Position numbers and translations under genes: made by a program
In this document: positions 3,064 to 62,346 of the stretch, piece by piece
Numbering within the stretch: the stretch's first letter is position 1
Layout: each line of letters begins with the position of its first letter
Virus record (IMG/VR): IMGVR_UViG_3300026484_000002
Coordinates: 1 to 64,000 of that record
Origin: a virus
DNA length: 64,000 nucleotides
Reading direction: 5' to 3' (one strand)
The notes under the pieces: generated by a model
Databases searched by the model: none
Seen by the model: only the letters and a program-made list of their open reading frames with translations
What the model was told of the DNA's origin: nothing

Positions 3064-3064
3064 T

Positions 3065-13172: not shown

Positions 13173-13418
13173 ATGGGTAAAAGTGTAGCTCCATTAATGA
13201 CAAAGTTAGTGCAAGAGATGGAAGACTTTAGGATAATAACAAGTAGATTTCCATCAACTATAGTTACCAATACAATGACAGCAAAGCAACTTATGAGAGA
13301 AGCAGAATCAGTAGGAAAACTTACAATTCCAGATACTAATACAATATTATTAGATGGCTTGTTTTTAGCTGTTGGGATCCAAGATAAAAGTCAAGAAATA
13401 AAAATGAGGGTATTATAA
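13173..13418 (+). CDS. hypothetical protein
   Basis: 81 aa, AAGGA SD, stop overlaps the next start. Confidence 0.7.
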   Translation: MGKSVAPLMTKLVQEMEDFRIITSRFPSTIVTNTMTAKQLMREAESVGKLTIPDTNTILLDGLFLAVGIQDKSQEIKMRVL

Positions 13419-14812: not shown

Positions 14813-14928
14813 AATAATATGTTTGTTGATGTATATACGACAACAGCTGTTACATTGTCGATTGCAGTCATGGTGGCTGCAATTATGATTAACAAAAATG
14901 AAGAACATAAAAATATTAAGGAATAAGA

Positions 14929-15822: not shown

Positions 15823-15897
15823 TCTGGTGTACTCAACTGGTACGAGGTATGACTGTTAATCATAAATATGTAGGTTCGATTCCTACCACCAGAGCCA
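15823..15897 (+). tRNA. tRNA-Asn(GTT)
   Basis: TCTGGTG/CACCAGA acceptor, TATGA-CTGTTAA-TCATA, G73, CCA. Confidence 0.92.
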
Positions 15898-15907
15898 AAA
15901 AAAACAA

Positions 15908-15982
15908 TGAGGTATAGCCAAGCGGTAAGGCAGCAGGTTTTGATCCTGTTATTCGGTGGTTCGATCCCATCTACCGCAACCA
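15908..15982 (+). tRNA. tRNA-Gln(TTG)
   Basis: GCAGG-TTTTGAT-CCTGT anticodon arm, U1-A72, one acceptor mismatch, CCA. Confidence 0.88.
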
Positions 15983-15983
15983 T

Positions 15984-16068
15984 GGATAGTTCGCATAATG
16001 GTATTGCACATCACTGCTAATGATGCGAGGTAATACTCATGTGAGTTCGAATCTCACACTATCCACCA
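15984..16068 (+). tRNA. tRNA-Ser(GCT)
   Basis: GGATAGT/ACTATCC acceptor, CATCA-CTGCTAA-TGATG, long variable arm, CCA. Confidence 0.9.
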
Positions 16069-42396: not shown

Positions 42397-42948
42397 ATGG
42401 CACCTTTATATAATTCTACAGGTCAAGTTAACAACGGAATGGGTGGGTTTACAAATGTTATTCCACAGCCTAGAACCTATAGCGGTGTTGGACTTTCATC
42501 ATTGGATCTGCCTGCTACAGGAAATATGCCTTGGGCAGGTTATAGTAATAATACTCCTGAACTTTCTTTTTTAGACAAAACTGAAAATTATTTTAAAAAT
42601 GATTTTCTAAAACCAACTACCGAAACTGTTCGTACAGTAAATCCTGATGGAACTATATCCATGAAAACTATAGATGGTGGATTGTTAAGCTCTGATGCTG
42701 CTAAAATAGGTCAAGGACTATATGCTGTAGGTATGGATGGCTTTAATATATATAACACTAATAAAAATTACAAATTACAGAAAAATAGATTTAATTTAAT
42801 GAAAAAAGAGGCTGCAGCTAATTATGGATTAAGTGCTAAGAAGTTTAATAATGCTATTGCTGATAAAAATGCTGCAAGAGAAGCAGCTAGAGCTTCAGGG
42901 TTCAGAGTTAGAGATGTGCATTATGACACTGCACCTGTAACACTTTAA
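42397..42948 (+). CDS. internal virion/ejection protein (N4 gp52-like)
   Basis: 183 aa, Gly-rich amphipathic segment then basic helix; Cys-free; synteny. Confidence 0.65.
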   Translation: MAPLYNSTGQVNNGMGGFTNVIPQPRTYSGVGLSSLDLPATGNMPWAGYSNNTPELSFLDKTENYFKNDFLKPTTETVRTVNPDGTISMKTIDGGLLSSDAAKIGQGLYAVGMDGFNIYNTNKNYKLQKNRFNLMKKEAAANYGLSAKKFNNAIADKNAAREAARASGFRVRDVHYDTAPVTL

Positions 42949-42957: not shown

Positions 42958-45096
42958 ATGCAATCACAATTTTTAAAATATATGAATGATCTAAACAATC
43001 AAAATCAAAAAAGAATGGATAAAGAATACCAATATTCTCAAGATTTCTTTAAAAACAGCATGCTTCTAGATGCAAACAATAGAGCTAAATATGAAGCAGA
43101 AACAAAAGGTATGGGTCAAGCTGATAAGGTGAAGGAAGTTATGGATAGTATCACTTCTAGAACCAATAAACTTGACAATACTAAAGCAATGGATGAAGTA
43201 AACAATATTTTTGGTCAAGCTACACAAGACAATACTCTTGATAATTATGTCAAACAAATTGATAATGACAAAAGATATAATGATATGATGTCTGTTACAA
43301 AAGGATTGGATCCAACTAGTGAAGAAGCTGAGAAAAAACGTATTCTAGGCGATAAATATGATGATTATTTAGCTCGTACTAAAAAGATAGATTCTAACTT
43401 GGATCTATTAAATAGTAAGGCAGGCACTGGGTATGAAAATATTCTATATGGAGTTGATGCAGATACTGCAAAATCAACTGTTGCTAATGAATTGATGAAT
43501 GGTGGAGTAAATCCTGTTTATGCAGAGAACCTTGCAGCATCATTATCCGTTCCTTATGTAAAAAAACCTAATGTATCTAAGCTTACTGATTTAGATAAAG
43601 CATTAATAGAACATGCAGATAAAGTAAAGAAAGACATATACAGTAATGCTAATACTTTTGAAAATGCATCATCTATCGCAAGCGGAAAAAGCACTAAAAG
43701 AGATCCAAAAGATAAAAATGGTTTTAAAAATTATTACTTAACAACTGCTCCAGTTAATGATTATAAAAACGATTATCCAGCATTTCAAAATTATGTTATA
43801 GAAAAATTAGATGCAGAACCTTCTGTTGTTCTTGATAGATCTGTTAACGATATATATAAACAATTTAATGCTCCAGTAAAACTAAAACTTGGAAAAGGAA
43901 AAACGAAATCTGTATACTTGCCAAAAGAAGCCCTTTATAAATATGTTACTGATAATTTAGAACCAAATATTGGTACATCTAATGAAATTAAAAATATAGA
44001 TCCAGATACATTTGAAAAATGGAGAGAACAAAAAGCAAAAGAAATGTTCAATCAAGGTTTGATTAACGATTCTTATTCTTTAAAATCTTTAAATCTTACT
44101 CCAAAAGATGAAGTTACTAAAAAAAGTAAAATATCAGGAAAAAGCTTAACCAAGGAACAAAAATCTACCATTAAAGCTTCTAATAATCTTATAGCGAATG
44201 TATTCAGCAAATATAAAGGAGTCACAGACAAACAAATAGTTGATGACTGGCTAGGAACAAATTATAGTACATTAAAAACAGAACCAATTAAAAAAGAAGA
44301 AAATAATAATAATAGTAGCATTATAAAAAAAGCTTTTGAAAAGAAAGTTTTTAAAGAACAAGGAATTGAAAAGAAAGTTAATAACGAAAAAGTTAACAAT
44401 GAAAAAGTTAATCCATTAATTCAAGAATTAAATAGCAAAAATGGAGCTGCAAAAGTATATGATATCTTTAAAGGTACAGAACCAAAAACTCTATTATCCT
44501 TAGTAAATAATGTAAATAATAAAGATTCTAAAAAATTGTTAAGTGCAGTAAATAGTTTTAATGTGGATCATCCATTTAAAGATTTAAATGAATTAAAAAC
44601 AGAATTAAAAGAAAGAATACTGGTTAATAAATCTAATGAAGAAACTAAAAATTATTCTTCAGAACATCCTGTATATTTTACAAAAAAAGACAAACCATAT
44701 GATTTTGATTTGCTAATGAATCAAACATTACAAAATATAAAAAATGATAAATCTATATCAAAAATGAGAGAAGGTGCATTGATTTCTGAATTAAATAAAT
44801 ATTTAAGACAAAAAGATATTGCTAAATCAAAAATAGATAATAAAATACTTGATACGCTGATTAACACTGGAGCTAGTAGTGGAAAGTTTATAGCAAACAC
44901 CATAAACCAACTTAAACCAAAAAATGATCAAATAGATTTATCTATTTTTGAAAAAAAAGCTATTAGGGCTAAAGAAAAAAGAAAAAGTGATGCCAAAAAA
45001 AGACATAAACAAGTAACTTCTCATAATCGTGTTGAAAAAGATTTTGAATCACTTCCATATAAAGATTTACATAAATATTTATACAATAATAAATAG
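42958..45096 (+). CDS. internal virion/ejection protein (N4 gp51 position)
   Basis: 712 aa, Cys-free, directly upstream of the vRNAP locus. Confidence 0.65.
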   Translation: MQSQFLKYMNDLNNQNQKRMDKEYQYSQDFFKNSMLLDANNRAKYEAETKGMGQADKVKEVMDSITSRTNKLDNTKAMDEVNNIFGQATQDNTLDNYVKQIDNDKRYNDMMSVTKGLDPTSEEAEKKRILGDKYDDYLARTKKIDSNLDLLNSKAGTGYENILYGVDADTAKSTVANELMNGGVNPVYAENLAASLSVPYVKKPNVSKLTDLDKALIEHADKVKKDIYSNANTFENASSIASGKSTKRDPKDKNGFKNYYLTTAPVNDYKNDYPAFQNYVIEKLDAEPSVVLDRSVNDIYKQFNAPVKLKLGKGKTKSVYLPKEALYKYVTDNLEPNIGTSNEIKNIDPDTFEKWREQKAKEMFNQGLINDSYSLKSLNLTPKDEVTKKSKISGKSLTKEQKSTIKASNNLIANVFSKYKGVTDKQIVDDWLGTNYSTLKTEPIKKEENNNNSSIIKKAFEKKVFKEQGIEKKVNNEKVNNEKVNPLIQELNSKNGAAKVYDIFKGTEPKTLLSLVNNVNNKDSKKLLSAVNSFNVDHPFKDLNELKTELKERILVNKSNEETKNYSSEHPVYFTKKDKPYDFDLLMNQTLQNIKNDKSISKMREGALISELNKYLRQKDIAKSKIDNKILDTLINTGASSGKFIANTINQLKPKNDQIDLSIFEKKAIRAKEKRKSDAKKRHKQVTSHNRVEKDFESLPYKDLHKYLYNNK

Positions 45097-45156: not shown

Positions 45157-48100
45157 ATGGCTAACTATCCTGATGACTTCACTAAAAATACCAATAATGT
45201 ACTGGATCAATTTTCCCAATTAACAGACACCTACAATACTGCTGTTGACGTTATTGGTTCTGTGCCTACTTCTACAAATAAAATCAATCATCTCCAACAA
45301 AAGAAACAACAAAAAATAGATAGACTTAATCCAGATGCTACATTGGATCTATATAATAATATGGATATATATACAAATGAATATGGAATAACTAAAGATT
45401 CATTAAATAGCTATACTCCAGAACAGTTACAAGAAATGCTTGGTTCTAGTGTAAATGATAAAGTATATTATGACGATAAAGAAATAGGTCCATATCAAAT
45501 GAAACAAGATGCTGAAGGAGAATGGAATAAAACCCCTTTTAGTGGCACTACTCAACATGTGTATGTTGCTCCTAGCAAAGATGGTAATATGAAGTTAGGT
45601 TTAGCAGGTGTAGGCTTTAGAGAAAGATATACACCTGGTCTTGCTGCAAAAGAAGGATTGACTACAAATAAAAACTATGGTTGGGCTCCAGGGGAAAAAG
45701 GAGTAGATCCAACAAAAGAACCTTATTTAGATATAGCTCTTCCATATGACGAAGCTTCAAGATTAGAATTCCTAACACACTCAAATAAAGGACAAATTGC
45801 AAATAGAGCAGGTGGTGCTAGTGTTGCTGACTATATAAAAAATGTGAAACCAAATGTTTATGGCAAAGGAGCGAGTGAATATACAACACAAAATGCCCCT
45901 ATGTGGAATATAAATTCCAGCAATACAGATTTACCAGAGCAAGTAGTTACTCCACATATTCCTAAGTTTTTAGGTGATACTAGTACGCCTAGATCAAAAG
46001 CAATAGGTGTAATCCATGATAATGCAGAATACGAAGGTGAGCCTCTGCTAGGACAATTTGCAGATGGAGTTGCTAGAAATGCTAGAGGATTTGCTGGTGG
46101 AGTAGCGAGAGTCATTGGTGATACTGCAAAACTAGCTAATGATTTAGAAACTAGAGCCATTTATGAATCAGCAAAAAGACTTTATGATTTCAATGAGAAA
46201 GATGCAAATGAATTAGCAGATAGATTTCAATTTTTAACAAAAGAAAAACTAGATACCATGGAAAATGCTATAGCTGGTGAAGATTTTGTTACTGCTACAG
46301 CTGATGATACTAAGAAAATGGAAGAGCATCAAAAGAAAGCTTTTAAGGATGTTACTTGGTCAGATCCAAGTTCATATGGTAAAGTCAATTTACCTGAAGC
46401 ATACAATATGTTTAAGACAGGTTTATCTAGCCCAGAAATGACTTTTAAATCACTAGGCTATATGCTCGGAAACCTAATAGGTCTTCCTGAAAAAGCAGCA
46501 ATCAAAATGGCAGGCAAAGGAACTTTAAAAGCACTTGAGTACAATGCAAAAAAAGATGTTGCAAAAGAGATGTTAAGCAAAGCTGCCAAGACTGATAAGC
46601 TAATTGCTGCTGGAAAAATAACAACTGAAGATGCTGTAAAAAAAGGCATGACTTTATTGGATCCAGCCAAGAAAGCCATGTATGAAAAAACTATTCAACT
46701 TAGTGACAGAGCATTAAGTAAAATTCCAATTAAAAATAAATTCAATGCATTCGTTGCAAAAAATGCAAACATACTACATCTTGGAGCTGTAACTAATGAA
46801 CAGGATATGGATGATTACTACGAAAAACACGGTGAAAGAGCATCTCTACAACATGCATTATTAGGTTTTGCTGCAAATGCTGTAGGAGCAAAAATAGACT
46901 TATGGGCTGATAAAACTGCATTAATGGGAACAAAAGAAGGCTTTTCTGCATTAATTAAAAAAGCAGGTAAAACAAGAGCACAAAAGATGCTTACAGGAGT
47001 AATTTCTGGTGCAGCAAAAATGGCAGAAGGTGGTATTGCTGAGCTTCCTGCAGAATATATTCAGAGTGGGATCCAAGCTTTCAATAATACATATAAAGAT
47101 GATAATGCAGCAGAAGCTTTAACCAAAGCATTTCATGATGCAACACAAGGTGCAGCTTTCGGAGCAGCAAGTGGTATTCATATGGCAGGTCCTAGTGCTG
47201 GATCTAACATTATTACAAATACATTTACTGAAACTGATAGTGATAAAAGCTATGAAAATAAAATTACATCTGACACAGAACCAACAAATGCAACTTCTGA
47301 TGAACAGGCACAAGATTTAGCACTTGATAAGCTCTATACACACTTGCATGAAAAAGGAGAACCATTATCTGAAGAAGATAAACCTTTGGCTCATGCATCA
47401 GTTGAGCGTCATTTAAACAATACTTTACAAAGTCTTGCATTAGCTGAAGAAAATATAAATGCTGAAATTGCTAAAGAAAATCCTGATACTGAATTTATAG
47501 GTTCTCTCGAAAAAGAAAAAGAAAACCTTGAAGATAAGATTTCTATTTTACTTGATATGCGTAATCATACTGCAGAAGATGGAGTTATTTATAATAATAG
47601 ACCAATAAAAGAAATAGACAATGATTTGACACAAACAATAGAACAACTCAACAATGAGCCTAAAGATCCAAAACTGATTAAGAAAAAACGACAGTTATTG
47701 TTAGAAAAATATATAGCCAGTCATCCTTTAGCAAAAAAAGCCAATGAAAATGGTGAAGATACTGAAGATTCTGAAGCAACTTTCGATACAGTATTGTCAC
47801 AAAAATTATATGGAGGAGTGACCAAGGATGGATATAGAACTGGTATTGTTAATATGGTCACTCCATTGTTTGATGACAGTATAAGTGAACATGGAAAGCG
47901 AGCTGTTAAAAATAATATAGAAAGATTTCTTGAATCTCAATCAGCCAAAGAAAAGGCAATCGAAGCAGCTAAGACTAAATTTGAAGAACAAGGAAAAGAT
48001 GCAGAAGAGAATCCAACACCTGTTATAGCTAGATATTTTACTCCTACAGGTACTGAAGCTACTTTTGAATATAGAGGTATTGCTTCAGAAAAAACATTAG

Positions 48101-49782
48101 AAAAAATAAAAAAAGAAAACGAGTTCTTGCATAGTATTCTTCATTATGCAACCAATCCTGTAGAATTGGAATCTATAGTATCTGACATTGGTTCTAATCA
48201 ATCTGATAAAAATGCTCCTGATGATTTTTTTGATGCTTCAAAAGGAGAACCTAGAAGCAACCATGCTTTAGAATCTGAAGAAGGAATAAATACTAATTTT
48301 GAAAATAAAAAAACACATATACTAAATAATACTGAAGATACTTCTGAAACACAAAACACTATAGAGAATAAAATCACAGAACTAAATGACTTATTAGGCA
48401 ATAAACAACACGAGAACTTCAGTAAACAGCTAGAAGAAACCATTGAATCAATTCCTTCTTTTTCAACTGATATACTAAACCAACTAAAAGATACAAGAGG
48501 ACTTAAAAGTTATGTTACAAATGTAAAAAATGGTATAAACCTTATGCCAAAGCTTTTAACACGACTCACAAAAGAACCAAATGAGCAAGGTACTCCTACT
48601 TGGAACGCCAGAGCTTATAGAGCAGTTACTGCATTAGAAAAGTATGCCAAGGCTGCTAATAAAATAATAGAAAGTGAAGCATATCAAAAAATACAACAAA
48701 ATGCTTTTCAGGAAAAGTTGCCCAATATAGAACAGACAGCATCTAATACTAACACTAGTATGAATGAAGTTTCTTTTGACGCAGATGAAGCTCCTTTTGA
48801 TATTTCTAATATTGATATAAACACAGAACCAAAAGAAAACAATAATATTAGTACGCAAAACAACACAGTTGAGATTGGATCCAATGAAACAAAAAAAGAA
48901 ATTGGATCAAACGAGACAACAGATAGTAAACTTAACGAAACAAGCAATAACAAAGATTCCAAAGAAGAAGTAGAAACAACTCCTAAAATGGATAGTACTG
49001 GATCCAATGACTATAAAATTCCAGATATGGAAACAAAACAATCAAGTGAGGCATCATTAAGTAATGAAGCACCATCAAATGTTGTCAGTAAAGTAAAAGA
49101 ACAACAGCAACCCAATAAACAAACCAAACAAGCTGAGCAGCCAAGTAAAGAAAAGGTTGAATCAAATAACAAATCTAATAAAGAAGCAAATAATAAAGAA
49201 GTAAAAGAAGTAAATGATAAAGAAGAATCAAAGAACGTCAAAACAGTAGATAACCATGGTCCGATTGAAAGAAAAAACAAATCTGATACTTTTTACAAAA
49301 ATGATACAACATATAAAGATCCTATAAAACAGAAGGAAAAACAATTAGTAAATAGTGTTGTCGGTAAATTGCAGACAATATTGAATAACTACGAAAAGAA
49401 ATACAAAGAAGTAGAAACTACTTTAGGCACCGACATTAAAACAATAAAAGCAGAAAGAGCTAAGCGTACTAAATCACTAAAAGAATTTACTGGAATTAAA
49501 GATATTGCATCTAGAGGAAAAGTTAAAAAGAAATATTTTTACGAAGACTTAAGTATAACTATTGAAGACTTATTAGAAGATATAGATGAGAATAGTTATC
49601 TTGGAAAAAATATAATAGAAGAAGTAAATAAAATTCGACCTAATAGTAAAATAGGTATTGAAATACTTGAAAATAATAGTATCTCTAAAACAATAGAAGA
49701 ATCACTAACTAATATGCTTGATAAAGAGATCATAAGTGAAGATGTGATAAACTCTCTAGAAGAAATAACAGGATGTAACTAA
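45157..49782 (+). CDS. virion RNAP locus part 1 (N-terminal ejection/membrane region)
   Basis: 1541 aa; Ala/Gly-rich amphipathic region with ELPAEYIQSG; long disordered linker; precedes the polymerase domain. Confidence 0.7.
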   Translation: MANYPDDFTKNTNNVLDQFSQLTDTYNTAVDVIGSVPTSTNKINHLQQKKQQKIDRLNPDATLDLYNNMDIYTNEYGITKDSLNSYTPEQLQEMLGSSVNDKVYYDDKEIGPYQMKQDAEGEWNKTPFSGTTQHVYVAPSKDGNMKLGLAGVGFRERYTPGLAAKEGLTTNKNYGWAPGEKGVDPTKEPYLDIALPYDEASRLEFLTHSNKGQIANRAGGASVADYIKNVKPNVYGKGASEYTTQNAPMWNINSSNTDLPEQVVTPHIPKFLGDTSTPRSKAIGVIHDNAEYEGEPLLGQFADGVARNARGFAGGVARVIGDTAKLANDLETRAIYESAKRLYDFNEKDANELADRFQFLTKEKLDTMENAIAGEDFVTATADDTKKMEEHQKKAFKDVTWSDPSSYGKVNLPEAYNMFKTGLSSPEMTFKSLGYMLGNLIGLPEKAAIKMAGKGTLKALEYNAKKDVAKEMLSKAAKTDKLIAAGKITTEDAVKKGMTLLDPAKKAMYEKTIQLSDRALSKIPIKNKFNAFVAKNANILHLGAVTNEQDMDDYYEKHGERASLQHALLGFAANAVGAKIDLWADKTALMGTKEGFSALIKKAGKTRAQKMLTGVISGAAKMAEGGIAELPAEYIQSGIQAFNNTYKDDNAAEALTKAFHDATQGAAFGAASGIHMAGPSAGSNIITNTFTETDSDKSYENKITSDTEPTNATSDEQAQDLALDKLYTHLHEKGEPLSEEDKPLAHASVERHLNNTLQSLALAEENINAEIAKENPDTEFIGSLEKEKENLEDKISILLDMRNHTAEDGVIYNNRPIKEIDNDLTQTIEQLNNEPKDPKLIKKKRQLLLEKYIASHPLAKKANENGEDTEDSEATFDTVLSQKLYGGVTKDGYRTGIVNMVTPLFDDSISEHGKRAVKNNIERFLESQSAKEKAIEAAKTKFEEQGKDAEENPTPVIARYFTPTGTEATFEYRGIASEKTLEKIKKENEFLHSILHYATNPVELESIVSDIGSNQSDKNAPDDFFDASKGEPRSNHALESEEGINTNFENKKTHILNNTEDTSETQNTIENKITELNDLLGNKQHENFSKQLEETIESIPSFSTDILNQLKDTRGLKSYVTNVKNGINLMPKLLTRLTKEPNEQGTPTWNARAYRAVTALEKYAKAANKIIESEAYQKIQQNAFQEKLPNIEQTASNTNTSMNEVSFDADEAPFDISNIDINTEPKENNNISTQNNTVEIGSNETKKEIGSNETTDSKLNETSNNKDSKEEVETTPKMDSTGSNDYKIPDMETKQSSEASLSNEAPSNVVSKVKEQQQPNKQTKQAEQPSKEKVESNNKSNKEANNKEVKEVNDKEESKNVKTVDNHGPIERKNKSDTFYKNDTTYKDPIKQKEKQLVNSVVGKLQTILNNYEKKYKEVETTLGTDIKTIKAERAKRTKSLKEFTGIKDIASRGKVKKKYFYEDLSITIEDLLEDIDENSYLGKNIIEEVNKIRPNSKIGIEILENNSISKTIEESLTNMLDKEIISEDVINSLEEITGCN

Positions 49783-52700
49783 TGAGTTGTAATATAAAAG
49801 CAGGACATATAATAGAAGGTATAGGAAAATATTTAAAAGATGGTGATAATGCTACAGCAAATAAGTTGCAAAATGCATTAAGAGATACTACAAATTTATC
49901 TACTCACTTTACTATCGACTTTAAAAGTAAAAGTAAGTTAGATGATTATTCTAAAGAATATGACAGTAATAGCAACAACCTTACTACTACAGAACTTCAC
50001 ATAAACAATTCAATAAGTAATTTCATTGAAAAAGCTGTGGATCTAATTCCTAGTGTGGATAAAACGCTTCCATCTATTGAAGGTGAAATTTCACAAGGAT
50101 GGCAAAGTGTTATCTCTTATTTTATTCGACCTGAAACAATAAAATCAACAGATAAATATGGAACTACAAAAGAAAAAATTATTACTAGACTTGATCCTGA
50201 TGTTCAAAGAGCAGTATCTTTAGTTACTTCTGAATGGTTAAACAATGATGCATTAACAGGCATTTCTGAACTAAGAGGTGATGATGGAGTTAGAGCTCTG
50301 CTTGGTATGGGGACAAAAGATATCGTTACTAAAACTGAAAGAGATGCTGTAAGAGATATTGACGGTTATGTTGGTGAAGCTGCTAGGCAAATGGGTAATA
50401 AAATCTACAGCATGTTAGGCATAAGAGCAAAAGCAAATTCTCCACAAATAAATAATAAACTGATTGAAAATACATTAAAAGTAGAATTAGGTTTGTTGGC
50501 TCTAAAAACATTGGAATACAATGGAGATATATCATTGAGCAAAAAAGACATTATACTGAACGAAGAAGTTATTAGATCCCAAGTGTCAGTATATCAATTC
50601 AACAATAAACATAATAACAACATTAATCTAAATACTCCTAATGGGGTTCTTCCTTTGTCAATAAATGACAAATATAATGATATCAAATTTAGTAAAATAT
50701 TTACTGATAAGGTAAATGAAGTAATCAACAATAAAAGAATTGCAGGGATTTATACTGATCCAAAAGAAGCAATACCATCTTATGATGAAATAAAAAATAA
50801 TGGTGTAACTGGAATACTAGGTAATATAGTCAGTGAGGCACATAAGAATGCTGTACAAAATTCTAGTAGTACCGCCTATGAATTTAAACATGGGTTTATT
50901 AAAGGTGTAGAGTATGTAGAAAAAGCCCTTAAAAAAGCTATGGGGTATAAAGATGAAGCTAAAACTACCAAAGGACTAAGAGAAGCCACTAGAGGTAAAA
51001 ATTTAGCCATAGATATGCAGTATGATAATTTAATGAATGCATATAATACTGTAGGTTTGAGCAAAAAAATGTATGCTAAATGGGAAGTTATTACTAATAA
51101 TAGATTTATGATTGATAGCAACCAACTTAATTGGCAAGATAAAAAAATGCATAGACAAAGTGTATTTTTTGAACCTGTTGTGGTTACTGAAGAAAATAAA
51201 AATGATTTCTATATGATGTTAGGTCAATCTTTTGATTTAGATATAGATAAACATTCTCCTGATGTGGTCAATAAAGCTGTTGAAGATTTGTTTAAGGATA
51301 TTGAAAAAAATACAAAATTATCAGTTACTAAAAGAACTAAAAAAAGTTTAGACTCTTATTATAATAGTAAAGATTACAAAAAAGATATTGAAACATTATT
51401 TAAATACATAGTTGATAATTACAACAGTAGTGAGCCTGAACATGCATTAAGTGGTGCAGTTGAGCTTCTGGGTTGGATGCACGAAACTAAAGCAAGTAGA
51501 CCATATACTACTCAATCTATGATAGAGACTGATGCTATTACTTCTGGATATGCAATCAAAGGCTTGATGTTTCCATTTCATGATAATAAAGAAGAAATTA
51601 ACTGGAGTGAATTTGAACGCACAGGAATATTTACTGCTGATGCAGAAATTACTGATTATGGAGAATGGAAAGATAATGAAGACAATAAAGATTCTTATGA
51701 AGTTCCAGCAGAAATGCTTACTGAAAAATTACAAGCATTATACACAGAAGATAATACAAAAGAAATTTCAGACATTATAAAATTAATTGACAAGAAAGCT
51801 AAATTTGATAAAGATGGAGAACTAGTCTCTATATCTCGTAACTTTATGAAGAATCCTTTTATGGTTCTAAACTATGGTAGTGCTATTAAATCTATCATTA
51901 GAGCTGTTAGTAAACATGCTGAAGATGAGTTCTATCAAACTTTAGATGCACTTTTCAACAGTAAAGAAAATAGCAATAGAAAAGAACTACAAACTAGTGT
52001 TTTAAATGCAATAGCAACTATAGCTAAAAGAATGAATCCTATCTTTGATGTAGATGGTGAAATTATAGGATTTGATAGAACCAAAGCTAATTCTACATAT
52101 AAATCTATTATCAATAGATTTAAACACGAAGGCTTAGAATTTGAACTTACTTCACAAGAAGCTACAGCTCTAAGAGAAAGCATATCAGATTTTATAGGAG
52201 AACCACTAACAAAAACATTTAAAGAAAAATATGGTAGATTTATAGAATTAACTACAACAATTAATGAATCTATGGTTGCTCAATTTAGAATAGCAAATGA
52301 AGTAATTGAAAAAGAAATAGAAAAACTTCACCAAGAAAAATTAAAAGATGCTAGTGGTAATGAAAAACTTGTAACTCCTATGACTGATAAAGAGTATCAA
52401 GAAATAGTACAAAGTGTAGCCAATATTCTGCCTGTTGTAAATACAGCATTGGATCTGGTTGAAGGTGGTAAAGCTCCATTATTGATAGCAGAATTAAAAG
52501 CTATAGATAATAGAGAAGTATGGGGAAATACTAGTACTAGTGGTTATGTCCGCAGCAAGTTCACTAAAAACACAAAAGAGTCAGATGTTTATATTAATAG
52601 TGCTCCTGCACAAGTTAAGAGATTATTAGAAGCATATTCTTCTGGTTCTGTAATACCTATTCATTTCTTTGATGGTAGTATTCAAGCCAAATTATTAGCT

Positions 52701-53279
52701 AAGCTAAAAGCTCTTGGAGTACATGATGCCAACTTCTCTCCTATAAATATGACTATAGAAGTAACTAAAGCGTATAATGAAATATTTTGGGAATTAGCTA
52801 GAGAATATAGTTTAGCAAAAGAAATTAGAGAAAGTTATTTAAATAGCTTAACCGCATTAGATGATGATATTGTTACAGCATTAAACAGTAAATACTCAGA
52901 AACATTGAAGGATAGTTCTAAGATCCCATATACAAAGACTTTAAGTAAATTAAACAAGCAATTAGAAAATGTACATATAGAAGCTGAAAATAAAAGAGAG
53001 AAGATATTTACTACTCCTGTAGTAGTTAATCAAGCTTATTATAACAATGGCACTGAAAGTGCAGCATATATACCTAATAAAAATGAATACACTAAACAAA
53101 CTATAGATGAAGATCTTGTAAACAATGCTGCTGACAAATTAAAACGATATAATAATATATCACTTGAAAATAATGCTGATATACCAACTGATATGACGCA
53201 AACGCAAGCTTTGATTAGTGATAAAGATGCTAAAATAGCTATAAATAATGTTATAGAAAATAATAATAAGGAATGTTAA
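49782..53279 (+). CDS. virion RNAP locus part 2: catalytic polymerase (mini-vRNAP equivalent)
   Basis: NWQDKKMHR, motif A IETDAITSG, motif B RNFMKNPFMVLNYGS, IHFFDG, motif C VHDA. Confidence 0.88.
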   Translation: MSCNIKAGHIIEGIGKYLKDGDNATANKLQNALRDTTNLSTHFTIDFKSKSKLDDYSKEYDSNSNNLTTTELHINNSISNFIEKAVDLIPSVDKTLPSIEGEISQGWQSVISYFIRPETIKSTDKYGTTKEKIITRLDPDVQRAVSLVTSEWLNNDALTGISELRGDDGVRALLGMGTKDIVTKTERDAVRDIDGYVGEAARQMGNKIYSMLGIRAKANSPQINNKLIENTLKVELGLLALKTLEYNGDISLSKKDIILNEEVIRSQVSVYQFNNKHNNNINLNTPNGVLPLSINDKYNDIKFSKIFTDKVNEVINNKRIAGIYTDPKEAIPSYDEIKNNGVTGILGNIVSEAHKNAVQNSSSTAYEFKHGFIKGVEYVEKALKKAMGYKDEAKTTKGLREATRGKNLAIDMQYDNLMNAYNTVGLSKKMYAKWEVITNNRFMIDSNQLNWQDKKMHRQSVFFEPVVVTEENKNDFYMMLGQSFDLDIDKHSPDVVNKAVEDLFKDIEKNTKLSVTKRTKKSLDSYYNSKDYKKDIETLFKYIVDNYNSSEPEHALSGAVELLGWMHETKASRPYTTQSMIETDAITSGYAIKGLMFPFHDNKEEINWSEFERTGIFTADAEITDYGEWKDNEDNKDSYEVPAEMLTEKLQALYTEDNTKEISDIIKLIDKKAKFDKDGELVSISRNFMKNPFMVLNYGSAIKSIIRAVSKHAEDEFYQTLDALFNSKENSNRKELQTSVLNAIATIAKRMNPIFDVDGEIIGFDRTKANSTYKSIINRFKHEGLEFELTSQEATALRESISDFIGEPLTKTFKEKYGRFIELTTTINESMVAQFRIANEVIEKEIEKLHQEKLKDASGNEKLVTPMTDKEYQEIVQSVANILPVVNTALDLVEGGKAPLLIAELKAIDNREVWGNTSTSGYVRSKFTKNTKESDVYINSAPAQVKRLLEAYSSGSVIPIHFFDGSIQAKLLAKLKALGVHDANFSPINMTIEVTKAYNEIFWELAREYSLAKEIRESYLNSLTALDDDIVTALNSKYSETLKDSSKIPYTKTLSKLNKQLENVHIEAENKREKIFTTPVVVNQAYYNNGTESAAYIPNKNEYTKQTIDEDLVNNAADKLKRYNNISLENNADIPTDMTQTQALISDKDAKIAINNVIENNNKEC

Positions 53280-56200
53280 ATGAAATGTACTATATACGCT
53301 TTAGGTGAATACCTTGATGAGAAAGAAGATCTGCCAAAAGTCATAAAAGAATTAAGAAAATTAGATAAGTCAGATAAGTATTTTCCTGACAGTGAATACA
53401 AAAATTTAGCAAAACAAGCAATATTGGATCACAACCAAGCTTATCAGCTTATGGAAGATCTTGATGGTAGATTTAGATATGAATACGAGAACCAATACCA
53501 TGTTGTAGATATTAAAAATATAGATATAAATAACAATAAAAATGAATTAAATATAGTTCTAGCAGATAATACTACTATCAAATATAAGATAGATAATAAA
53601 AACCTAAAAGCTATTAATCATCCTTTTTATTCAAGAGATCTTGAGTTGCAATGGAATGATGTTGTTAGCTCACCTATTGAGCTTTTATTTAATGGGGTTG
53701 ATGCAAAAAGTAAAAATCTAGATAATATTATAGAAGGAAAAGAACTCCTTGATGGTAATATTGAGGCAATTCAAACAGAGTTAAGTAAGTTAGATAGAAT
53801 AGCTCCTAACAGTTCATGGGATCAAGCTCATAGCAATCATTTAAAAGAAGTAATAAGTCGCATAAGTAGATCTGCTGACGAATTAAAAACAGTACAGATA
53901 AAAGTAACTAAAAATTTAGTTGAAAATCTAAAAGAACCATTGGGTAGCTATAATACAAAAAGTAGAACTATCCAAGTTGCTACAGCAGAAGCAATGACTA
54001 AATTTGGAATGAGCAATGAAGAAACATTGGCTCATGAATATCTTCATGCAGTATTAGATATTTTATTCAATAAGCAATTAGGTGTTATGGGTGAAGATAT
54101 AAAAAATGATTTACGAAAATTATATGTACAAGCTAAAAAGAATATAACCTGGAAAGATTTAATGCCTGCTAATGAACTACACAGTAAAGCAGCAGAAAAT
54201 AAAGCTAAAGAAATATACGATTATATTTTTATTGGTAAAATTGGAGATAATAGTGTTGAAGATGCAGAAGTAAGATTAATGGAATTTCTAGTTTATGGTA
54301 TGACCAATAAAGAGTTAAAATCAGCCATAGATAAAATATCATTAAAAGTCAAACCTGTGAAAGCTAAGTCTTCTGGTTTATCTGGCATCTTTGAATATTT
54401 AATGGAAAAATTACAAGATTTAGTTTTTAAAATTAAAACCAAAACAAATAGAAGTGATAATGTAGGGTCAGAACTTACAAGATTGGTTTATAAGCTTGGA
54501 ACAATAAATAAAATGTATGCTAAAACTATTGAGAACAATAAAAACTTACCATTAGATGAAAAAATATTCTCATCTGTAGATAAGGTTTTTAGTAAAATGG
54601 ATAAAGAATTAGGCAAAAAAGTTGAGTCTATAACTAATGATTTTCTAAATGAAAAAGATGGTGATAAAATCTACACCAACGATTTAATAACTCAAGTTAA
54701 AATGCTCAGTAAAGAACTCACAGAAGCTTATAACAAAGGCAAAATTATAAAAACTGCATGGTTATCCATTAAAGGTATATTTGTCATTATGAAAGCTTAT
54801 AGATTATCTAAACAAAGTAAAAATGAAAATATTCAACGATTGTATAAAGAGTTGGATCGTTTACTTCGTAGGATGGATGAATTTGCTGGTAAGTTTATAT
54901 CTGATCTTCTCAGGGATTTCAAAGAGGGAAGAAAGACATTGGTTCAATTAGGTGACATAACTATGCAATTTAAAACCCAATTAGATCGTGTTAAAGACAT
55001 GTATTATAAAGGAACACTTAATGATATTTTTTCTGGTTTTACTAAAGTGGATCTCACTCACGAAAGACATAAAAAACTTAACCAATCTTTAACAAATGTT
55101 ATATTACGTACAGATGTACAAAGTTTCACTACCGATGTTAATGAACTTAAAAAATACATAACAGATGATAAAAAATTATCTAACACTATAAAAGAATTAG
55201 AAGATGAATTAAGTCAAGCTATGTTTAATAGCAAAACATCTACATTAAATGTAGGTCCATGGGTTGTTAATGAATGTAAAGAATTAGCTTCTTATATGAT
55301 ATCTAGAAAAGGAAAAAGAAATAATGCAACTAATATATCACATTTATTTGGAACCACAGAAAGTGTACCTTTAGATGAAAGCTTAAATGGACTATGGAAT
55401 ATTCAAAATATAGAAGAAAAAATAGATAAACTTACTAGCCTTTATGCTCTAAAAAACACAAGTATAGAAAGTAAAAAAGCATTAATTGAATTAATTGATT
55501 TAGATAAAAATGGAGTTCAGAATTATTTAGAAATAACTAGAGGAATGGTTGCTTCAACAAAAGAAGATTGGTTCGTAACTGGATCTTTATCTGAAATGGT
55601 AAAAGGACAAATACATGAAACTCACAATAAAGATAAAGAATTAGTTTTCGCTCCTTTAAATGAAACAAATGCAATGTTAGAAGCTGGTTATTCTTTGGTT
55701 AGGAAATTAGACAAAGATGCTGGAGATATTGATATTAAAAATTATGGTTTATTTGTAACTAACACAAAAGGAGTTACAAAAAGAGTTGATGGAGCACTGG
55801 GTCTTCAAAGAATAAAAATTCCAGGACTATTGCTAAGTCAAAAAATTATGATGTCAAATAAACATTTAACTGGAAAATCTTTAGGAAGAAAAATTAGAAA
55901 TGCTATAAACAATGCTAGAGTAAATGGAACAGATGGAAAAATGTATCCAGTTTATAATGATTTAGGAAATATAATTGATTACAGATATGAATTTACATTA
56001 GATGAGGCAGAGCAATATATGGATTTGGAAACTAGAGGTTCTGAAAATTTAGCTAGAAGTTTTGGTCAAAAAAGTTCACAAATTATTACTGATGAACACA
56101 ATAAAGAATTAATAGATTTAATTATGGAAGATTCTAAAAAAATAACTAATGAAAACAAAGATCAATTCTTGCGTGTTCATGCAGTTGAAAATACTGATGT

Positions 56201-57371
56201 AAACAGTGGATCCAAGATTGATACTTTAAATGCTATGACTGAAGGTGAAGAACTATGGGGATTGCTACCAGCAGATGCTAGAAAATATATTATTGAAAAA
56301 AATATTGAAAATCTTAATGATCCAGATAACATTCCTAAAAAAGAAATTTATATCAGTAAAGATTTATTAAAACAGTTGTTTGGTTATGATGAATTAAGTA
56401 TTGCAGATAGTAAATTGTTTAAAAAAATGGATGTTAAAAATAAAAATAGAATTAGAATGATAGAAGCTTGGTGGATGGATTTAATGCAAATTGCAAAAAG
56501 TATGGTAGTTGTTAAAATGCCTAGTACTATTATAGGAAATATTTTAAGTAATGCTAAATTCTTTATGTTCTCAGGAGTATCTCCTAGAAAGGCTATACAA
56601 TACTTATTGTTAAGTAAAAAAAGTTTGGATAAATGGAAAAAGAATGAAAAAGCTAGACGTGATTTAGAAAGAAAAATTGATATAGCTACCGGATCTAAAA
56701 AAGAACAATTATTGAAACAATTAGCAGATTTAGCTTTAGAATTAAAAGATAATCCTATTATGCCATTAATTGAAGCTGGGTTATATCAAACTATTGCAGA
56801 AGATATTGACACAGAAGATTCAACTAATAGAGTTGTTCAATTATTAGATAAAACATTAGATCCAATTTATAGTAGCAATAAAACTATTGAAGATATTATT
56901 AATACAGTATTTCTTACTAAGAAAAGTACATTAGGTCAAGGATTATTACATATAATGCAAGAAAGTGACTTTCATTTTAGATCAGCTATATATTGGGATG
57001 GTATTGAAAAAGGAATAAGTAAAGATAAGATGTTGAGAGATGTTACAGATAAATTTATTAACTATAGTCGTGTAACTAATAGTCGTTTAATTCATTGGTT
57101 GGATAGAATGGGACCAGAAGCTTTTTGGAAATATTTTGCAAATATACAAAGAGTAAATTGGAGTTTAATGAAGAAAAATAGTACTAAAGTAATTTTAGAT
57201 ACTACAATAAAAGAAACTGGAGTTCCTTTGTGGTCAAATGATGTATTAGATAGTTCTATTATTTATCAATTTGGTAGAAGATTTAACCCATTAAATTGGA
57301 TCAATAATACAGAAGGATTGTTAAATGCAACAGTTGATGTGCCTATTACACATTTGATTGATGGATATTAA
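53280..57371 (+). CDS. virion RNAP locus part 3 (C-terminal region, zincin-like motif)
   Basis: 1363 aa; LAHEYLHA plus downstream EFLVYGMTN; C-terminal FINY...LDRMG...FWKY. Confidence 0.75.
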   Translation: MKCTIYALGEYLDEKEDLPKVIKELRKLDKSDKYFPDSEYKNLAKQAILDHNQAYQLMEDLDGRFRYEYENQYHVVDIKNIDINNNKNELNIVLADNTTIKYKIDNKNLKAINHPFYSRDLELQWNDVVSSPIELLFNGVDAKSKNLDNIIEGKELLDGNIEAIQTELSKLDRIAPNSSWDQAHSNHLKEVISRISRSADELKTVQIKVTKNLVENLKEPLGSYNTKSRTIQVATAEAMTKFGMSNEETLAHEYLHAVLDILFNKQLGVMGEDIKNDLRKLYVQAKKNITWKDLMPANELHSKAAENKAKEIYDYIFIGKIGDNSVEDAEVRLMEFLVYGMTNKELKSAIDKISLKVKPVKAKSSGLSGIFEYLMEKLQDLVFKIKTKTNRSDNVGSELTRLVYKLGTINKMYAKTIENNKNLPLDEKIFSSVDKVFSKMDKELGKKVESITNDFLNEKDGDKIYTNDLITQVKMLSKELTEAYNKGKIIKTAWLSIKGIFVIMKAYRLSKQSKNENIQRLYKELDRLLRRMDEFAGKFISDLLRDFKEGRKTLVQLGDITMQFKTQLDRVKDMYYKGTLNDIFSGFTKVDLTHERHKKLNQSLTNVILRTDVQSFTTDVNELKKYITDDKKLSNTIKELEDELSQAMFNSKTSTLNVGPWVVNECKELASYMISRKGKRNNATNISHLFGTTESVPLDESLNGLWNIQNIEEKIDKLTSLYALKNTSIESKKALIELIDLDKNGVQNYLEITRGMVASTKEDWFVTGSLSEMVKGQIHETHNKDKELVFAPLNETNAMLEAGYSLVRKLDKDAGDIDIKNYGLFVTNTKGVTKRVDGALGLQRIKIPGLLLSQKIMMSNKHLTGKSLGRKIRNAINNARVNGTDGKMYPVYNDLGNIIDYRYEFTLDEAEQYMDLETRGSENLARSFGQKSSQIITDEHNKELIDLIMEDSKKITNENKDQFLRVHAVENTDVNSGSKIDTLNAMTEGEELWGLLPADARKYIIEKNIENLNDPDNIPKKEIYISKDLLKQLFGYDELSIADSKLFKKMDVKNKNRIRMIEAWWMDLMQIAKSMVVVKMPSTIIGNILSNAKFFMFSGVSPRKAIQYLLLSKKSLDKWKKNEKARRDLERKIDIATGSKKEQLLKQLADLALELKDNPIMPLIEAGLYQTIAEDIDTEDSTNRVVQLLDKTLDPIYSSNKTIEDIINTVFLTKKSTLGQGLLHIMQESDFHFRSAIYWDGIEKGISKDKMLRDVTDKFINYSRVTNSRLIHWLDRMGPEAFWKYFANIQRVNWSLMKKNSTKVILDTTIKETGVPLWSNDVLDSSIIYQFGRRFNPLNWINNTEGLLNATVDVPITHLIDGY

Positions 57372-57382: not shown

Positions 57383-57457
57383 TGGTTGGCAGACAGAGAA
57401 TCGAACTCTGATTAAGTCGTTATGAGCGACTGGCTCTAACCATTGAGCTACCTGTCA
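57383..57457 (-). tRNA. tRNA with CAT anticodon (Met or Ile2)
   Basis: TAGCTCAATGGTTAGAGC D-arm, AGTCG-CTCATAA-CGACT, CAGAG-TTCGATT-CTCTG, CCA. Confidence 0.9.
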
Positions 57458-58816: not shown

Positions 58817-59041
58817 TTAATCTTGTTGTATGTCTGACAAGTCAGGAGCAGCATCAGCATACTGCTGACGAGCTACTTCATCACTTGTATGTAGTTTGGC
58901 TTCTAATTCTTTTATAGCAGCATCCTTAATGTGTATAGGTGCATCTGATACACGATATCGTTCTATTTTTTTTCTTATTTCAAATTCAATCATCATATAC
59001 TTTTTTATTAAATTATAAAAGAAAAGATTTGTAATCAGCAC
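58817..59041 (-). CDS. hypothetical protein (true start probably at an internal Met near 58996)
   Basis: Follows nrdB. Confidence 0.6.
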   Translation of the reverse strand: MLITNLFFYNLIKKYMMIEFEIRKKIERYRVSDAPIHIKDAAIKELEAKLHTSDEVARQQYADAAPDLSDIQQD

Positions 59042-60116
59042 TAGTTATTTCAGTATCAAGTTTACCTAATAAATAATTTGCACTATCTGTTTCTTTCATT
59101 GCTACTTGTACATTTGATAAATTTGAATATTTATCTACCCATATACAAGGATTTTTTACACGTTTAACAATATTTGGTAATTTAACATTTGTCATTACAT
59201 TATACATATTGTATTGTACATATTGTTTTAGAATTGAATTGCTTACTCCAAGAAGCTGAATATGCTTATCTTTAGGATAACAATAATCAATCCATTCTAA
59301 ATCAGTTTCATATGCTTGTTGATACATAACTATTGCTTCATTTTCAATTTCTGCAAATGCTGCTATCCATTCTTGTTGCTCTTTAAGACGTTTAATTATA
59401 TACACTGTCATTTGATAATGCATAATTTCATCCATAGATATTTTTGTTATTGCTTTTGCTGAGCTTTCCATTATATGATTTTCTGCAAAGGCAAATGTAG
59501 TTACAAATGATGATTTAAAAAATACTGCTTCTAAAATATTTAATGCATATAATGATAATGCTATTGATTTCATATGTTCATATTCATCATAATTTGGATC
59601 TTGAAGAACCATTCTACTATTCCACTCAATTGTTTTATCAAACACTTCTGCAATAGCAAGTCCACGTTTAATTATATGTTCATTAATAATAATATCATCA
59701 AACACTTCTTTTGCATCCACAGGAAGAGCTTTCAATATTTCTGCATATGTAGGTGAATGGATAACTCCTTCATAAAAAGCATGTTGAAACCACCATTCTT
59801 CAAGTTGAGGATTTGTAGTAATTGGACCAAAAACTTCACTTACAGATCTAGCTGCAATGCTATCTCCTACAGTTTGAAATTTAAGATTTTTATCAAATAA
59901 TTCTCTGAGTTGTTCATTCATTATAGAATAATCTTCTCCATCTTTTTTATATGAAAAATCAGTTTTAAACCACATCATACCTAAAGCTTTATCTGTTCGT
60001 TTTTGGATCTCTTGTTCTATAGGAAGATCCAATCTAGCCACATTTCTACCTTTTCCTAAAAATAATGGTTCATTTGTGAATTCTATATTATTAGTTGAAA
60101 ATGTATTATATTTCAC
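59013..60116 (-). CDS. nrdB: ribonucleotide reductase class Ia beta subunit
   Basis: FQTVGDS, EGVIHSPTY (radical Tyr), LEAVFF, DEIMH, C-terminal Tyr. Confidence 0.92.
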   Translation of the reverse strand: MKYNTFSTNNIEFTNEPLFLGKGRNVARLDLPIEQEIQKRTDKALGMMWFKTDFSYKKDGEDYSIMNEQLRELFDKNLKFQTVGDSIAARSVSEVFGPITTNPQLEEWWFQHAFYEGVIHSPTYAEILKALPVDAKEVFDDIIINEHIIKRGLAIAEVFDKTIEWNSRMVLQDPNYDEYEHMKSIALSLYALNILEAVFFKSSFVTTFAFAENHIMESSAKAITKISMDEIMHYQMTVYIIKRLKEQQEWIAAFAEIENEAIVMYQQAYETDLEWIDYCYPKDKHIQLLGVSNSILKQYVQYNMYNVMTNVKLPNIVKRVKNPCIWVDKYSNLSNVQVAMKETDSANYLLGKLDTEITSADYKSFLL

Positions 60117-62346
60117 ATCCGCCTCCTGTACATTGTAGTTTTGGTTCTTCTACTCCAGGAACTCTAGTATTTGTATAATATAATGATTTTACTCCATAAT
60201 ATTTTGCAAAATACATATCTTCAATTAATAATTTAAGAGGCACTTTTGAATCTTTAAACAGTTCAGGATTATAAAATCTATTTACACTGATTGATTTATC
60301 TATCCATTTTTGAGTTACTGCTACATGTGTTAAATATCTTTTAGTCATATCTTTTGTTTCATATGCTAATTCATATTGATGGGCAAGTTTATGTACTTCT
60401 GGAGCAAATTGTTTCATTACAGATGTTTTATTTTCTTTAAATGTAATAAAATCTTTAATTGGTTCTAACCCGTTTGTTTGATTTGATGGACCAGCTGAAG
60501 ATTCTGCTGGAGGAACCATAGATAATGCTACATTCGCCATTCCAATTTTCATTACTCGTTTTCTTAATTTATCCCAATTCAATCTAGTTTTAAATGGTAT
60601 TAATTTATCTACATTTTTATTGTAACGATCTATTGGCATTGTACCGTTTGCATAAGTTGAATACATAAAAAATCTAGGAGCTGGTGAAGTTTCCTCTGCA
60701 ATATCTGTAGATGACTTTATTAAATAATATTGAAAATGTTCCATCCATTCATCATGTAATTCAAGAGCTTCTTTGGATCCATATTTCAATCCTTGCTTTG
60801 CTAACCAATATGCATGATTAGAAAATCCAAGACCAACGCTTCGATATTCTTCAACATAAGCTTGTGCTTGTGGAGTTGGATGTTTTTGACGTATCATAAT
60901 ATGTGTTTGTGCACGTAATAATACATCAATTGTTTCTTGTAGTTCATTAATAGATACTTTACCTTGATTTACGTTACCAAGTACACAGATTGCAATATCT
61001 GGTTCATGTAGTCTATCAGCTGATAAATCTTTTGTTGGAGATACTTCTTCCATACATATATTAGATTGGTATATTGTTTCTGTATATGGTGAATTAGAAT
61101 TTACTTCATCTATATTTAAAATGTAGTATGCACTATTTTCAAATGTTTCTACATTTAATAGTTCAATAAGTTTTTTTGCAGAAATACGTTCATTATTTGG
61201 AAATTTATTTTCACATTCTTGATACAATTTACTAAATTCTTCTTTTGTTCCAGAATGAAATACTTCATATAATTCTGCTGAATCTCTTGTAGAGAATAAT
61301 GTTATAACATCATCAGCTACTGCTCGTTCATATACTAATTCACGTAATTTAATTCCATAAGATAAATCATTAATTCTTTTTTCAATTGATGTTCTTGGTG
61401 ACTTTAATGCCATTATAGTTATTATTTCTGGATCAAAAAAATTAATAAAAGGAGTTGCAGAACCCCTTCTCCCATTTTGAACTGCTTTTTGAATATCTGC
61501 ATCAATAGATTTTAATATAGGAACTTTTCCACCATGAGTTATAGATCCATTTTTTACTGAATCTCCAATAGAGGCAATTGCCGATACATCTATACCAATA
61601 CCAGCTGAAGCTGCTGTGTGAAGTACTAATGCTTTTGATGATTCTACCCAAGAATCAAGTGAATCTCCAGTCTTCATTAACACACATGAAGCATAATCAT
61701 TGGATTTTGTACGTAATGCATCCATTTCTGGAGAAGGTAATGTAATTTGGAATGTAGATAATTTATTATACATTAATTTAATATAATGCATACGATTTTT
61801 GTGATAATCACGAAAAATATCCATTGCAATTAACATAAACATATGTTGTGGCAATTCAATTAATTTTGTATTAAAATGTTTCATATATCTTAATTGTAAA
61901 AATTCAATACCTGCTGAGGTAAAATTAAAATCACGTTCATATTTTATTTCATTATTTAATTCATAAATTTCATTATCATCAAAAGCTTCATATAATTCTT
62001 CTGAATATATTTTTGCATTTTTTCCACGAATTAATATTTCCAATAAATGTTTTGGTTCTTTTGATTTTCCAACTTGTTTGTAGATTCTATGTATCATTAA
62101 ATTCTTAGCAATTATATCATATCCGATATCTTTTATTGTTGCCATATCTTTTGCAGTTTTAATAATTACATCATCGATATATGATGTTTTTATTTTGTCA
62201 TAAAAATGCAATTTTGCTGTTAATTCGATTGAACTAATTAAATGATTATATTTTCCTTCGGATGCTGATTCTAAATGTGAATGAATCTTTGATATGTTCA
62301 ACGGTTCAAGAGAGCCATCAGCTTTTGTAACCATTATATTGTTCAC
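60106..62346 (-). CDS. nrdA: ribonucleotide reductase class Ia alpha subunit with ATP cone
   Basis: VTKADG ATP cone, ASCVL, SNICME, PPAESS, LYY, C-terminal CTGGGC. Confidence 0.95.
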   Translation of the reverse strand: MNNIMVTKADGSLEPLNISKIHSHLESASEGKYNHLISSIELTAKLHFYDKIKTSYIDDVIIKTAKDMATIKDIGYDIIAKNLMIHRIYKQVGKSKEPKHLLEILIRGKNAKIYSEELYEAFDDNEIYELNNEIKYERDFNFTSAGIEFLQLRYMKHFNTKLIELPQHMFMLIAMDIFRDYHKNRMHYIKLMYNKLSTFQITLPSPEMDALRTKSNDYASCVLMKTGDSLDSWVESSKALVLHTAASAGIGIDVSAIASIGDSVKNGSITHGGKVPILKSIDADIQKAVQNGRRGSATPFINFFDPEIITIMALKSPRTSIEKRINDLSYGIKLRELVYERAVADDVITLFSTRDSAELYEVFHSGTKEEFSKLYQECENKFPNNERISAKKLIELLNVETFENSAYYILNIDEVNSNSPYTETIYQSNICMEEVSPTKDLSADRLHEPDIAICVLGNVNQGKVSINELQETIDVLLRAQTHIMIRQKHPTPQAQAYVEEYRSVGLGFSNHAYWLAKQGLKYGSKEALELHDEWMEHFQYYLIKSSTDIAEETSPAPRFFMYSTYANGTMPIDRYNKNVDKLIPFKTRLNWDKLRKRVMKIGMANVALSMVPPAESSAGPSNQTNGLEPIKDFITFKENKTSVMKQFAPEVHKLAHQYELAYETKDMTKRYLTHVAVTQKWIDKSISVNRFYNPELFKDSKVPLKLLIEDMYFAKYYGVKSLYYTNTRVPGVEEPKLQCTGGGCEI

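Follow-up and report, generated by a model that had tools for sequence, protein, structure and literature searches.

Bacteriophage N4 and other Schitoviridae encode their virion RNA polymerase (vRNAP), e.g., N4 gp50 or gp71 of Pseudomonas phage DEV, as one chain of about 3,400–3,500 residues, in which an N-terminal domain (NTD), a T7-like RNA polymerase (RNAP) and a C-terminal domain (CTD) follow each other. These enzymes have no cysteine, and N4 gp50 is indeed a single protein of 3500 amino acids (aa) with zero cysteines, as stated in a first-pass annotation of the DNA described here. Cysteine suppression in the Schitoviridae ejection operon has been explained by passage of its products through the periplasm (PMC11445570). 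An open question for N4-type virions is how a chain of ~3,500 residues gets out through a tail ~35 Å wide (PMC13434306). Here we describe a locus in a 64,000-nucleotide stretch of viral DNA (positions 1–64,000 of IMG/VR record IMGVR_UViG_3300026484_000002, hereafter the window), where the NTD, RNAP and CTD are encoded in the same order by three consecutive genes, A, B and C, with a pair of cysteines at each joint.

A covalent link between facing protein ends has a structural precedent in Anabaena phage A-4L. There, a disulfide between gp27 Cys1715 and gp26 Cys5 was seen by cryo-electron microscopy in the virion pre-ejectosome (PMC12002296, PNAS 2025). Both are giant internal proteins from consecutive genes and, as at the A–B–C locus, cysteines sit at their facing ends. 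The two A-4L chains are otherwise cysteine-free, i.e., Cys1715 is the sole cysteine of gp27 (1717 aa) and Cys5 that of gp26 (1114 aa). The authors regarded the disulfide as a local stabilizer and did not tie it to gene splitting (PMC12002296). In contrast to A–B–C, the A-4L pair includes no polymerase and forms one link and no chain. Moreover, gp26 and gp27 gave no phmmer hit with A, B or C at E values up to 10; the likeness is one of mechanism and not of family. The first-pass annotation knew of no redox-cleavable polyprotein of this kind, which needs correction in view of the published gp27–gp26 disulfide, though this was not presented as a general rule.

Results

Three consecutive genes encode the domains of an N4-type virion RNA polymerase

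The three genes and their five cysteine codons are located in the window as follows:

45157–49782, + strand: piece A, 1541 aa, NTD part of the vRNAP
49782–53279, + strand: piece B, 1165 aa, T7-like single-subunit RNA polymerase part, equivalent of the N4 mini-vRNAP
53280–57371, + strand: piece C, 1363 aa, CTD part of the vRNAP
49774–49776, + strand: codon of A Cys1540, the penultimate residue (end ..TGCN); clasp 1, upstream half
49788–49790, + strand: codon of B Cys3 (start MSC..); clasp 1, downstream half
53274–53276, + strand: codon of B Cys1165, the last residue; clasp 2, upstream half
53286–53288, + strand: codon of C Cys3 (start MKC..); clasp 2, downstream half
55275–55277, + strand: codon of C Cys666, internal and outside the rule described below

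A check of the open reading frames (ORFs) reproduced the gene lengths, the cysteine positions and the separate Shine-Dalgarno sequence of each gene exactly as first read. The starts of A, B and C are each preceded by their own Shine-Dalgarno core of the AGGA or AAGGA type. Genes A and B are read in different frames and share one base (TAATG); genes B and C adjoin directly (TAA ATG) and have a common frame. The IMG/VR record is a complete virus genome of 91,281 bp with direct terminal repeats, therefore the split is not a contig artefact.

We identified B and C as the RNAP and CTD of an N4-type vRNAP and A as its likely NTD. B matched PHROG 2206 at positions 1027–1993 (E 1.9e-82) and the Pfam family N4_RNAP_helical, and a profile of B homologues matched the N4 mini-vRNAP structure PDB 2po4 (E 3.5e-19). 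For an AlphaFold2 model of B with a mean predicted local distance difference test score (pLDDT) of 69, the best Foldseek match was N4 mini-vRNAP 3c3l_A over the whole length (E 2.4e-23, template modelling scores 0.60/0.64). B residues D584, R686, K690 and Y698 align with N4 D1556, R1663, K1667 and Y1675. The catalytic Asp of motif A and the Arg, Lys and Tyr of motif B were invariant in nine homologues; the His-Asp of motif C (H981-D982) was invariant in the homologues as well, and the profile did not align this motif to N4. C matched PHROG 2206 at positions 2280–3400 (E 1.5e-115) and residues 2478–3499 of N4 gp50 (BLASTP E 7e-16). Piece A is not detectable against the N4 NTD directly: it gave no direct Pfam or PHROG family match and no significant match to N4 gp50 or PHROG 2206. 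In fused NTD+RNAP relatives, however, the first ~960 positions were matched by a profile built from ten A-type pieces (hhalign probability 100%, E 1e-62). Sequence identity to cultured Schitoviridae amounts to about 20–23%.

The locus has in common with N4 gp50 and the Schitoviridae enzymes the domain order, the aligned catalytic residues, the suppression of internal cysteines and the slot after two cysteine-free proteins. It is embedded in an N4-like operon that also encodes the portal, the major head protein and the terminase. Given their homology and location in this structural operon, A, B and C probably travel inside the virion and are delivered to the host by ejection.

Mapped by alignment offsets, both split sites are near the flexible linkers of N4 vRNAP, i.e., residues 907–1007 and 2102–2123 (PMC13434306). 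In the B model, residues 1–4 and 1128–1165, which hold Cys3 and Cys1165, had pLDDT values below 50, and Cys1165 is located at the tip of a low-confidence tail of 38 residues. The low pLDDT around both cysteines would fit flexible tethers rather than a structured site.

Cysteines mark the facing ends of split polymerases

Piece A contains one cysteine (1540), B two (3 and 1165) and C two (3 and 666). Hence, 4 of the 5 cysteines in the three proteins lie no more than three residues from the two junctions. The chance of finding at least four of five in the 12 junction-terminal positions is 3.8e-10; cysteine content in the remaining ORFs of the window is 0.54%.

For comparison we fetched 50 IMG/VR loci and, after removal of duplicates, obtained 32 split loci with 46 junctions. 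The first-pass annotation had tied the terminal cysteines to the split, and this link held throughout: they were kept at all 46 split junctions and absent at fusions and outer ends. At each junction a cysteine was found no more than four residues from the upstream C-terminus together with one at position 3–6 of the downstream protein, and outer ends carried none. The split loci contained 97 cysteines in 134,704 aa, only four of them internal. Most C-type pieces of other loci lack internal cysteines, and in the related loci the final piece always carries its cysteine at position 3–6. Nine B homologues (32–35% identity) have exactly two cysteines each, one at residue 3 and one among the last six residues, and the C-terminal cysteine of A is an invariant column in an alignment of 10 NTD pieces. 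Seeming exceptions turned out to be over-extended start calls, where the ATG beside the upstream stop gave M-x-C each time.

The cysteines track the chain ends across two-, three- and four-part architectures. We observed NTD/RNAP/CTD, NTD+RNAP/CTD, NTD/RNAP+CTD, four-part forms and forms with a free middle module. When NTD and RNAP are fused, as in the 2393-aa protein of locus L006, the sole cysteine is the last residue. Four unsplit relatives (L038, L039, L047 and L054) contain zero cysteines. The middle module, 360–640 aa between RNAP and CTD, has cysteines at both ends when free; where it is fused to the C-terminus of the RNAP or the N-terminus of the CTD, there is no cysteine at the fused boundary. 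Free middle modules, for which no Pfam family was found, are encoded at:

L004: 9528–10652
L006: 13117–14199
L042: 10417–11643
L046: 10355–12289

Locus L010 (156–14939) shows that the rule does not need adjacent genes. Here the NTD piece ends with ..EEGCV and the RNAP+CTD piece starts with MAC.., and the facing cysteines are kept across an unrelated 1424-aa gene with 8 cysteines that lies between them.

These data bear on the partners of the cysteines. Their presence on both sides of a junction and absence from the outer ends favours pairing across the junction over homodimers. One could alternatively assign the thiols another role at free ends, i.e., transient redox sensing, a packaging handle or homotypic disulfides, so that neighbouring proteins would not be joined. 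Homotypic pairs are sterically conceivable with several vRNAP copies per N4 virion. However, homotypic or sensing roles predict neither cysteines matched across all 46 junctions nor outer ends without them, and in the A-4L structure the pairing is heterotypic. We therefore consider such other thiol roles unlikely.

The facing cysteines might also share a bridging metal ion in a two-protein clasp, which would join the pieces non-covalently. One cysteine per partner is compatible with a shared site, and acidic residues are common before the C-terminal cysteine (E or G at -1, K or E at -2). Apart from the terminal cysteine, nothing is conserved in the neighbouring residues. With a single cysteine per side and no histidine or second cysteine conserved nearby, a two-ligand site would offer little strength and would be lost when the chains unfold inside the tail. 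Moreover, the termini are predicted to be flexible, and the same kind of pair was modelled as a disulfide in A-4L. The first-pass annotation had offered a shared metal site as its alternative; lacking a conserved histidine or other ligand beside the cysteine, this proposal is weak, and we regard it as quite improbable.

The gene split appears to be genuine

Split vRNAP genes have been treated as errors before. A published survey joined ORFs of this kind, presuming read-through or errors of gene calling (PMC10654107). In the cultured N4-like Alteromonas phage vB_AmaP_AD45-P1 the vRNAP region (our locus L056, NC_021532.1 90623–102305) reads as two intact genes with facing cysteines, and the GenBank record labels it 'potential frameshift'. 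As B and C share one frame in the present genome, the split could likewise be thought unreal, i.e., a sequencing error, pseudogenisation, read-through or frameshift of one gene, with the cysteines as a by-product of a nucleotide signal. Against this, the frames of A and B differ. Each of the three relative frames and each of the three stop codons is represented among the 46 junctions, with gaps from -11 to +674 nt; both cysteine codons are used, a Shine-Dalgarno-like core precedes every downstream start, and the N-termini are conserved as M-x-C. Furthermore, viable cultured phages carry the split. We thus hold an artefact to be exceedingly improbable. The same features, i.e., own starts, differing A/B frames and varied frames, stops and gaps, bear out the first-pass annotation in its view that the locus is no frameshift artefact.

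Split vRNAP genes hence appear to be genuine and common, which corrects the practice of concatenating them or flagging them as frameshifts (PMC10654107; GenBank NC_021532).

Other explanations for the junctions were also rejected. A recoded polyprotein produced by read-through or frameshift did not agree with the junctions, where we found no fixed frame relation or conserved recoding signal. For a split intein or trans-splicing, no Pfam domain was found at the termini, and cysteines 1–6 residues from the ends leave no room for intein halves. Lipobox or CaaX-type signals were dismissed as well, as the cysteine alone is conserved, with 0–3 residues following the C-terminal one.

A wider protein sample and phylogeny

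We searched 1.8 billion representatives with a profile, which yielded 1034 matches, and analyzed the best 150. In the resulting set of 151 proteins (335,754 aa), 146 of 153 cysteines are no more than eight residues from a terminus. Full-length forms mostly lacked a terminal cysteine (34/36) or any cysteine (32/36), and all 52 NTD+RNAP forms had cysteine at the C-terminal end only. In RNAP+CTD forms, cysteine was found at the N-terminal end only (seven proteins), at both ends (three) or at neither (two); the three with cysteines at both ends are probably followed by a further piece downstream. RNAP-only forms had cysteines at both ends in 28 of 36 cases. Word-based searches for homologues of C and of the C-terminal part of A returned self-matches only, and no match was obtained in scans for single-protein loci with B and P0028 or in a megablast search against phages.

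In a FastTree tree of 131 polymerase domains, the split state on the N-terminal side changes at least 18 times. Of 15 independent contrasts, the N-terminal cysteine tracked the split state in about 10 and went in the opposite direction in none (p ~0.002). The C-terminal side, contrasted by protein length, gave a weaker result, with five contrasts in the same direction, none opposite and seven without change (p 0.06). Length alone misclassifies some long proteins, because a further piece follows them.

Two proteins of full vRNAP size nevertheless carry a C-terminal cysteine, P0066 (3503 aa, ..DCKGS) and P0149 (3880 aa, ..ECKGK), which suggests that a complete polymerase is chained here to yet another piece downstream. 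In P0003, the RNAP piece is extended at its C-terminus by residues 1163–1448, in which we found DUF7831 as well as a NADAR-like match too weak (26.8 bits) to pass the Pfam cut-off. This extension may represent an additional cargo domain carried along with the chain.

Cultured phages with the same cysteine pattern

The split vRNAP of phage AD45-P1 (locus L034) is homologous to B and C, but consists of two parts instead of three: a protein of 2481 aa with its sole cysteine at position 2479 is followed by one of 1409 aa with its sole cysteine at position 4.

The crAss-like Cellulophaga phage phi14:2 has a cysteine pattern identical to that of A–B–C in the consecutive virion proteins g067 (1797 aa, cysteine as last residue only), g066 (2180 aa, Cys3 and Cys2179) and g065 (1421 aa, Cys3). 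Of these, g066 is the injected polymerase, which is, in contrast to B, of the unrelated two-barrel type. In some relatives this crAss-like cargo block is fused into one polyprotein, and a preprint proposes proteolytic cleavage of the fused forms. The words 'cysteine' and 'disulfide' do not occur in the preprint on the phi14:2-type polymerase, nor do they in the paper on the N4 vRNAP structure (PMC13434306). We found no paper describing a terminal-cysteine rule for split vRNAPs. With AD45-P1, phi14:2 and A-4L, there are three cultured systems that show the rule.

Discussion

A proposed disulfide-linked chain for ejection

The cysteine rule at vRNAP gene splits is a real observation and a very strong rule, for which a disulfide mechanism is probable, with a structural precedent in A-4L. 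The first-pass annotation had proposed that the facing cysteines link part 1 to part 2 and part 2 to part 3. The comparative test and the A-4L disulfide both speak for this pairing; for the bond in the present phage we argue by analogy. Overall, we favour, with reasonable though not high confidence, that terminal disulfides between A Cys1540 and B Cys3 and between B Cys1165 and C Cys3 rebuild a nearly linear chain for ejection.

The proposed sequence of events would be as follows. The pieces, of which A would be the part concerned with membrane and ejection, would be made in the reducing cytoplasm and then packed into the head. In the mature virion, A Cys1540 would pair with B Cys3 and B Cys1165 with C Cys3, most likely as disulfides, giving a chain of ~4,070 residues that is linear save for stubs of at most three residues. 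This chain could exit via the narrow tail as a single unfolded thread, like beads on a string, in the way proposed for the single-chain N4 enzyme. Non-covalent contacts are lost on unfolding, so that only a covalent link at the very ends would keep the pieces joined and ordered, and the strict end placement of the cysteines is in line with a thread that crosses the tail unfolded. We infer that oxidation takes place in the virion, that threading is ordered and that the pieces are released by reduction; the last step is pure conjecture, in which the reducing host cytoplasm may reduce the links and free the polymerase from the N-terminal and C-terminal pieces. In the model for N4, the NTD exits first and anchors the rest to the membrane and the CTD autoinhibits the polymerase; reduction could accordingly free the polymerase from both.

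Several points weigh against this proposal. A disulfide in this phage and in the N4-like phages is suggested by the analogy to A-4L and not by chemistry. Virion assembly takes place in the reducing cytoplasm, and we found no phage thioredoxin or glutaredoxin in the complete 91,281-bp genome, hence oxidation would have to be spontaneous and late. A search of the genome for Erv1/ALR was not informative, as the control itself gave no signal. The habitat label is hydrothermal vent, which may be a poorly oxidising setting; the stretch is contained in sequencing runs from two studies labelled hydrothermal vent metagenome, one of which may be its source. Ejection proteins of Schitoviridae are thought to avoid cysteine owing to periplasmic oxidases (PMC11445570), which implies that exposed thiols carry a cost. 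Also, 8 of the 36 RNAP-only representatives lacked a terminal cysteine at one or both ends, although these may be miscalled starts or fragments. In support of the disulfide chain, on the other hand, disulfides do occur in virions assembled in the cytoplasm, e.g., in the crAss001 tail (PMC10172136).

A possible general coupling device for phage cargo

A broader proposal, which we put forward tentatively and rate at somewhat below even chances, is that podophages generally use pairs of terminal cysteines to couple cargo in a modular way, as seen in N4-like and crAss-like phages and A-4L. Oxidation in the virion would create a single thread for ejection, and the reducing cytoplasm of the host would act as scissors, cutting the polymerase loose from a membrane-bound N-terminal and an autoinhibitory C-terminal piece. 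A giant injected protein could then be split, or a cargo module added, provided that each new end carries a cysteine. If such a general device existed, the end placement itself would be evidence for a linear, unfolded passage through the tail.

A covalent link that is found only at the extreme ends, is present at splits and is gone at fusions would amount to natural evidence for one linear thread. Moreover, the pattern provides a simple sequence rule for spotting chained cargo proteins in uncultured phages.

Neighbouring genes and other features of the window

Two genes directly upstream of A occupy the slots of the small and medium ejection proteins of N4:

42397–42948, + strand: 183-aa protein without cysteine, in the N4 ejection-operon slot of gp52, by position only
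42958–45096, + strand: 712-aa protein without cysteine, in the slot of N4 gp51, by position only

Their translations confirmed that both are cysteine-free, as noted in the first-pass annotation. The gene order small, medium, vRNAP is that of N4. The 183-aa protein gave weak PHROG matches to families of unknown function. Counterparts of the 712-aa protein in related loci have 444–784 aa, are cysteine-free and are encoded ahead of the vRNAP pieces. The gp51 assignment is positional only, because the 712-aa family has no similarity to N4 gp51 (hhalign probability 0.1%). Just upstream of this cysteine-free pair, a 1165-aa protein (38864–42361, + strand; PHROG 2220, function unknown) has six internal cysteines and is therefore clearly outside the cysteine-suppressed set.

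In the early arm, a 177-aa ORF (3591–4124, - strand) has its sole cysteine as the last residue (..DNYC); there is no evident free partner, and this may be chance.

The window also encodes the small and large subunits of a class I ribonucleotide reductase (59013–62346, - strand; Pfam E 1e-32 and 2e-90). It contains four tRNA genes, i.e., an Asn, Gln and Ser cluster (15823–16068, + strand) and a Met tRNA directly after gene C (57383–57457, - strand). A PhoH-like protein and a ClpP-like protease are encoded upstream of the terminase (13418–15498, + strand), and a ClpP-like gene is found near the vRNAP in AD45-P1 as well.

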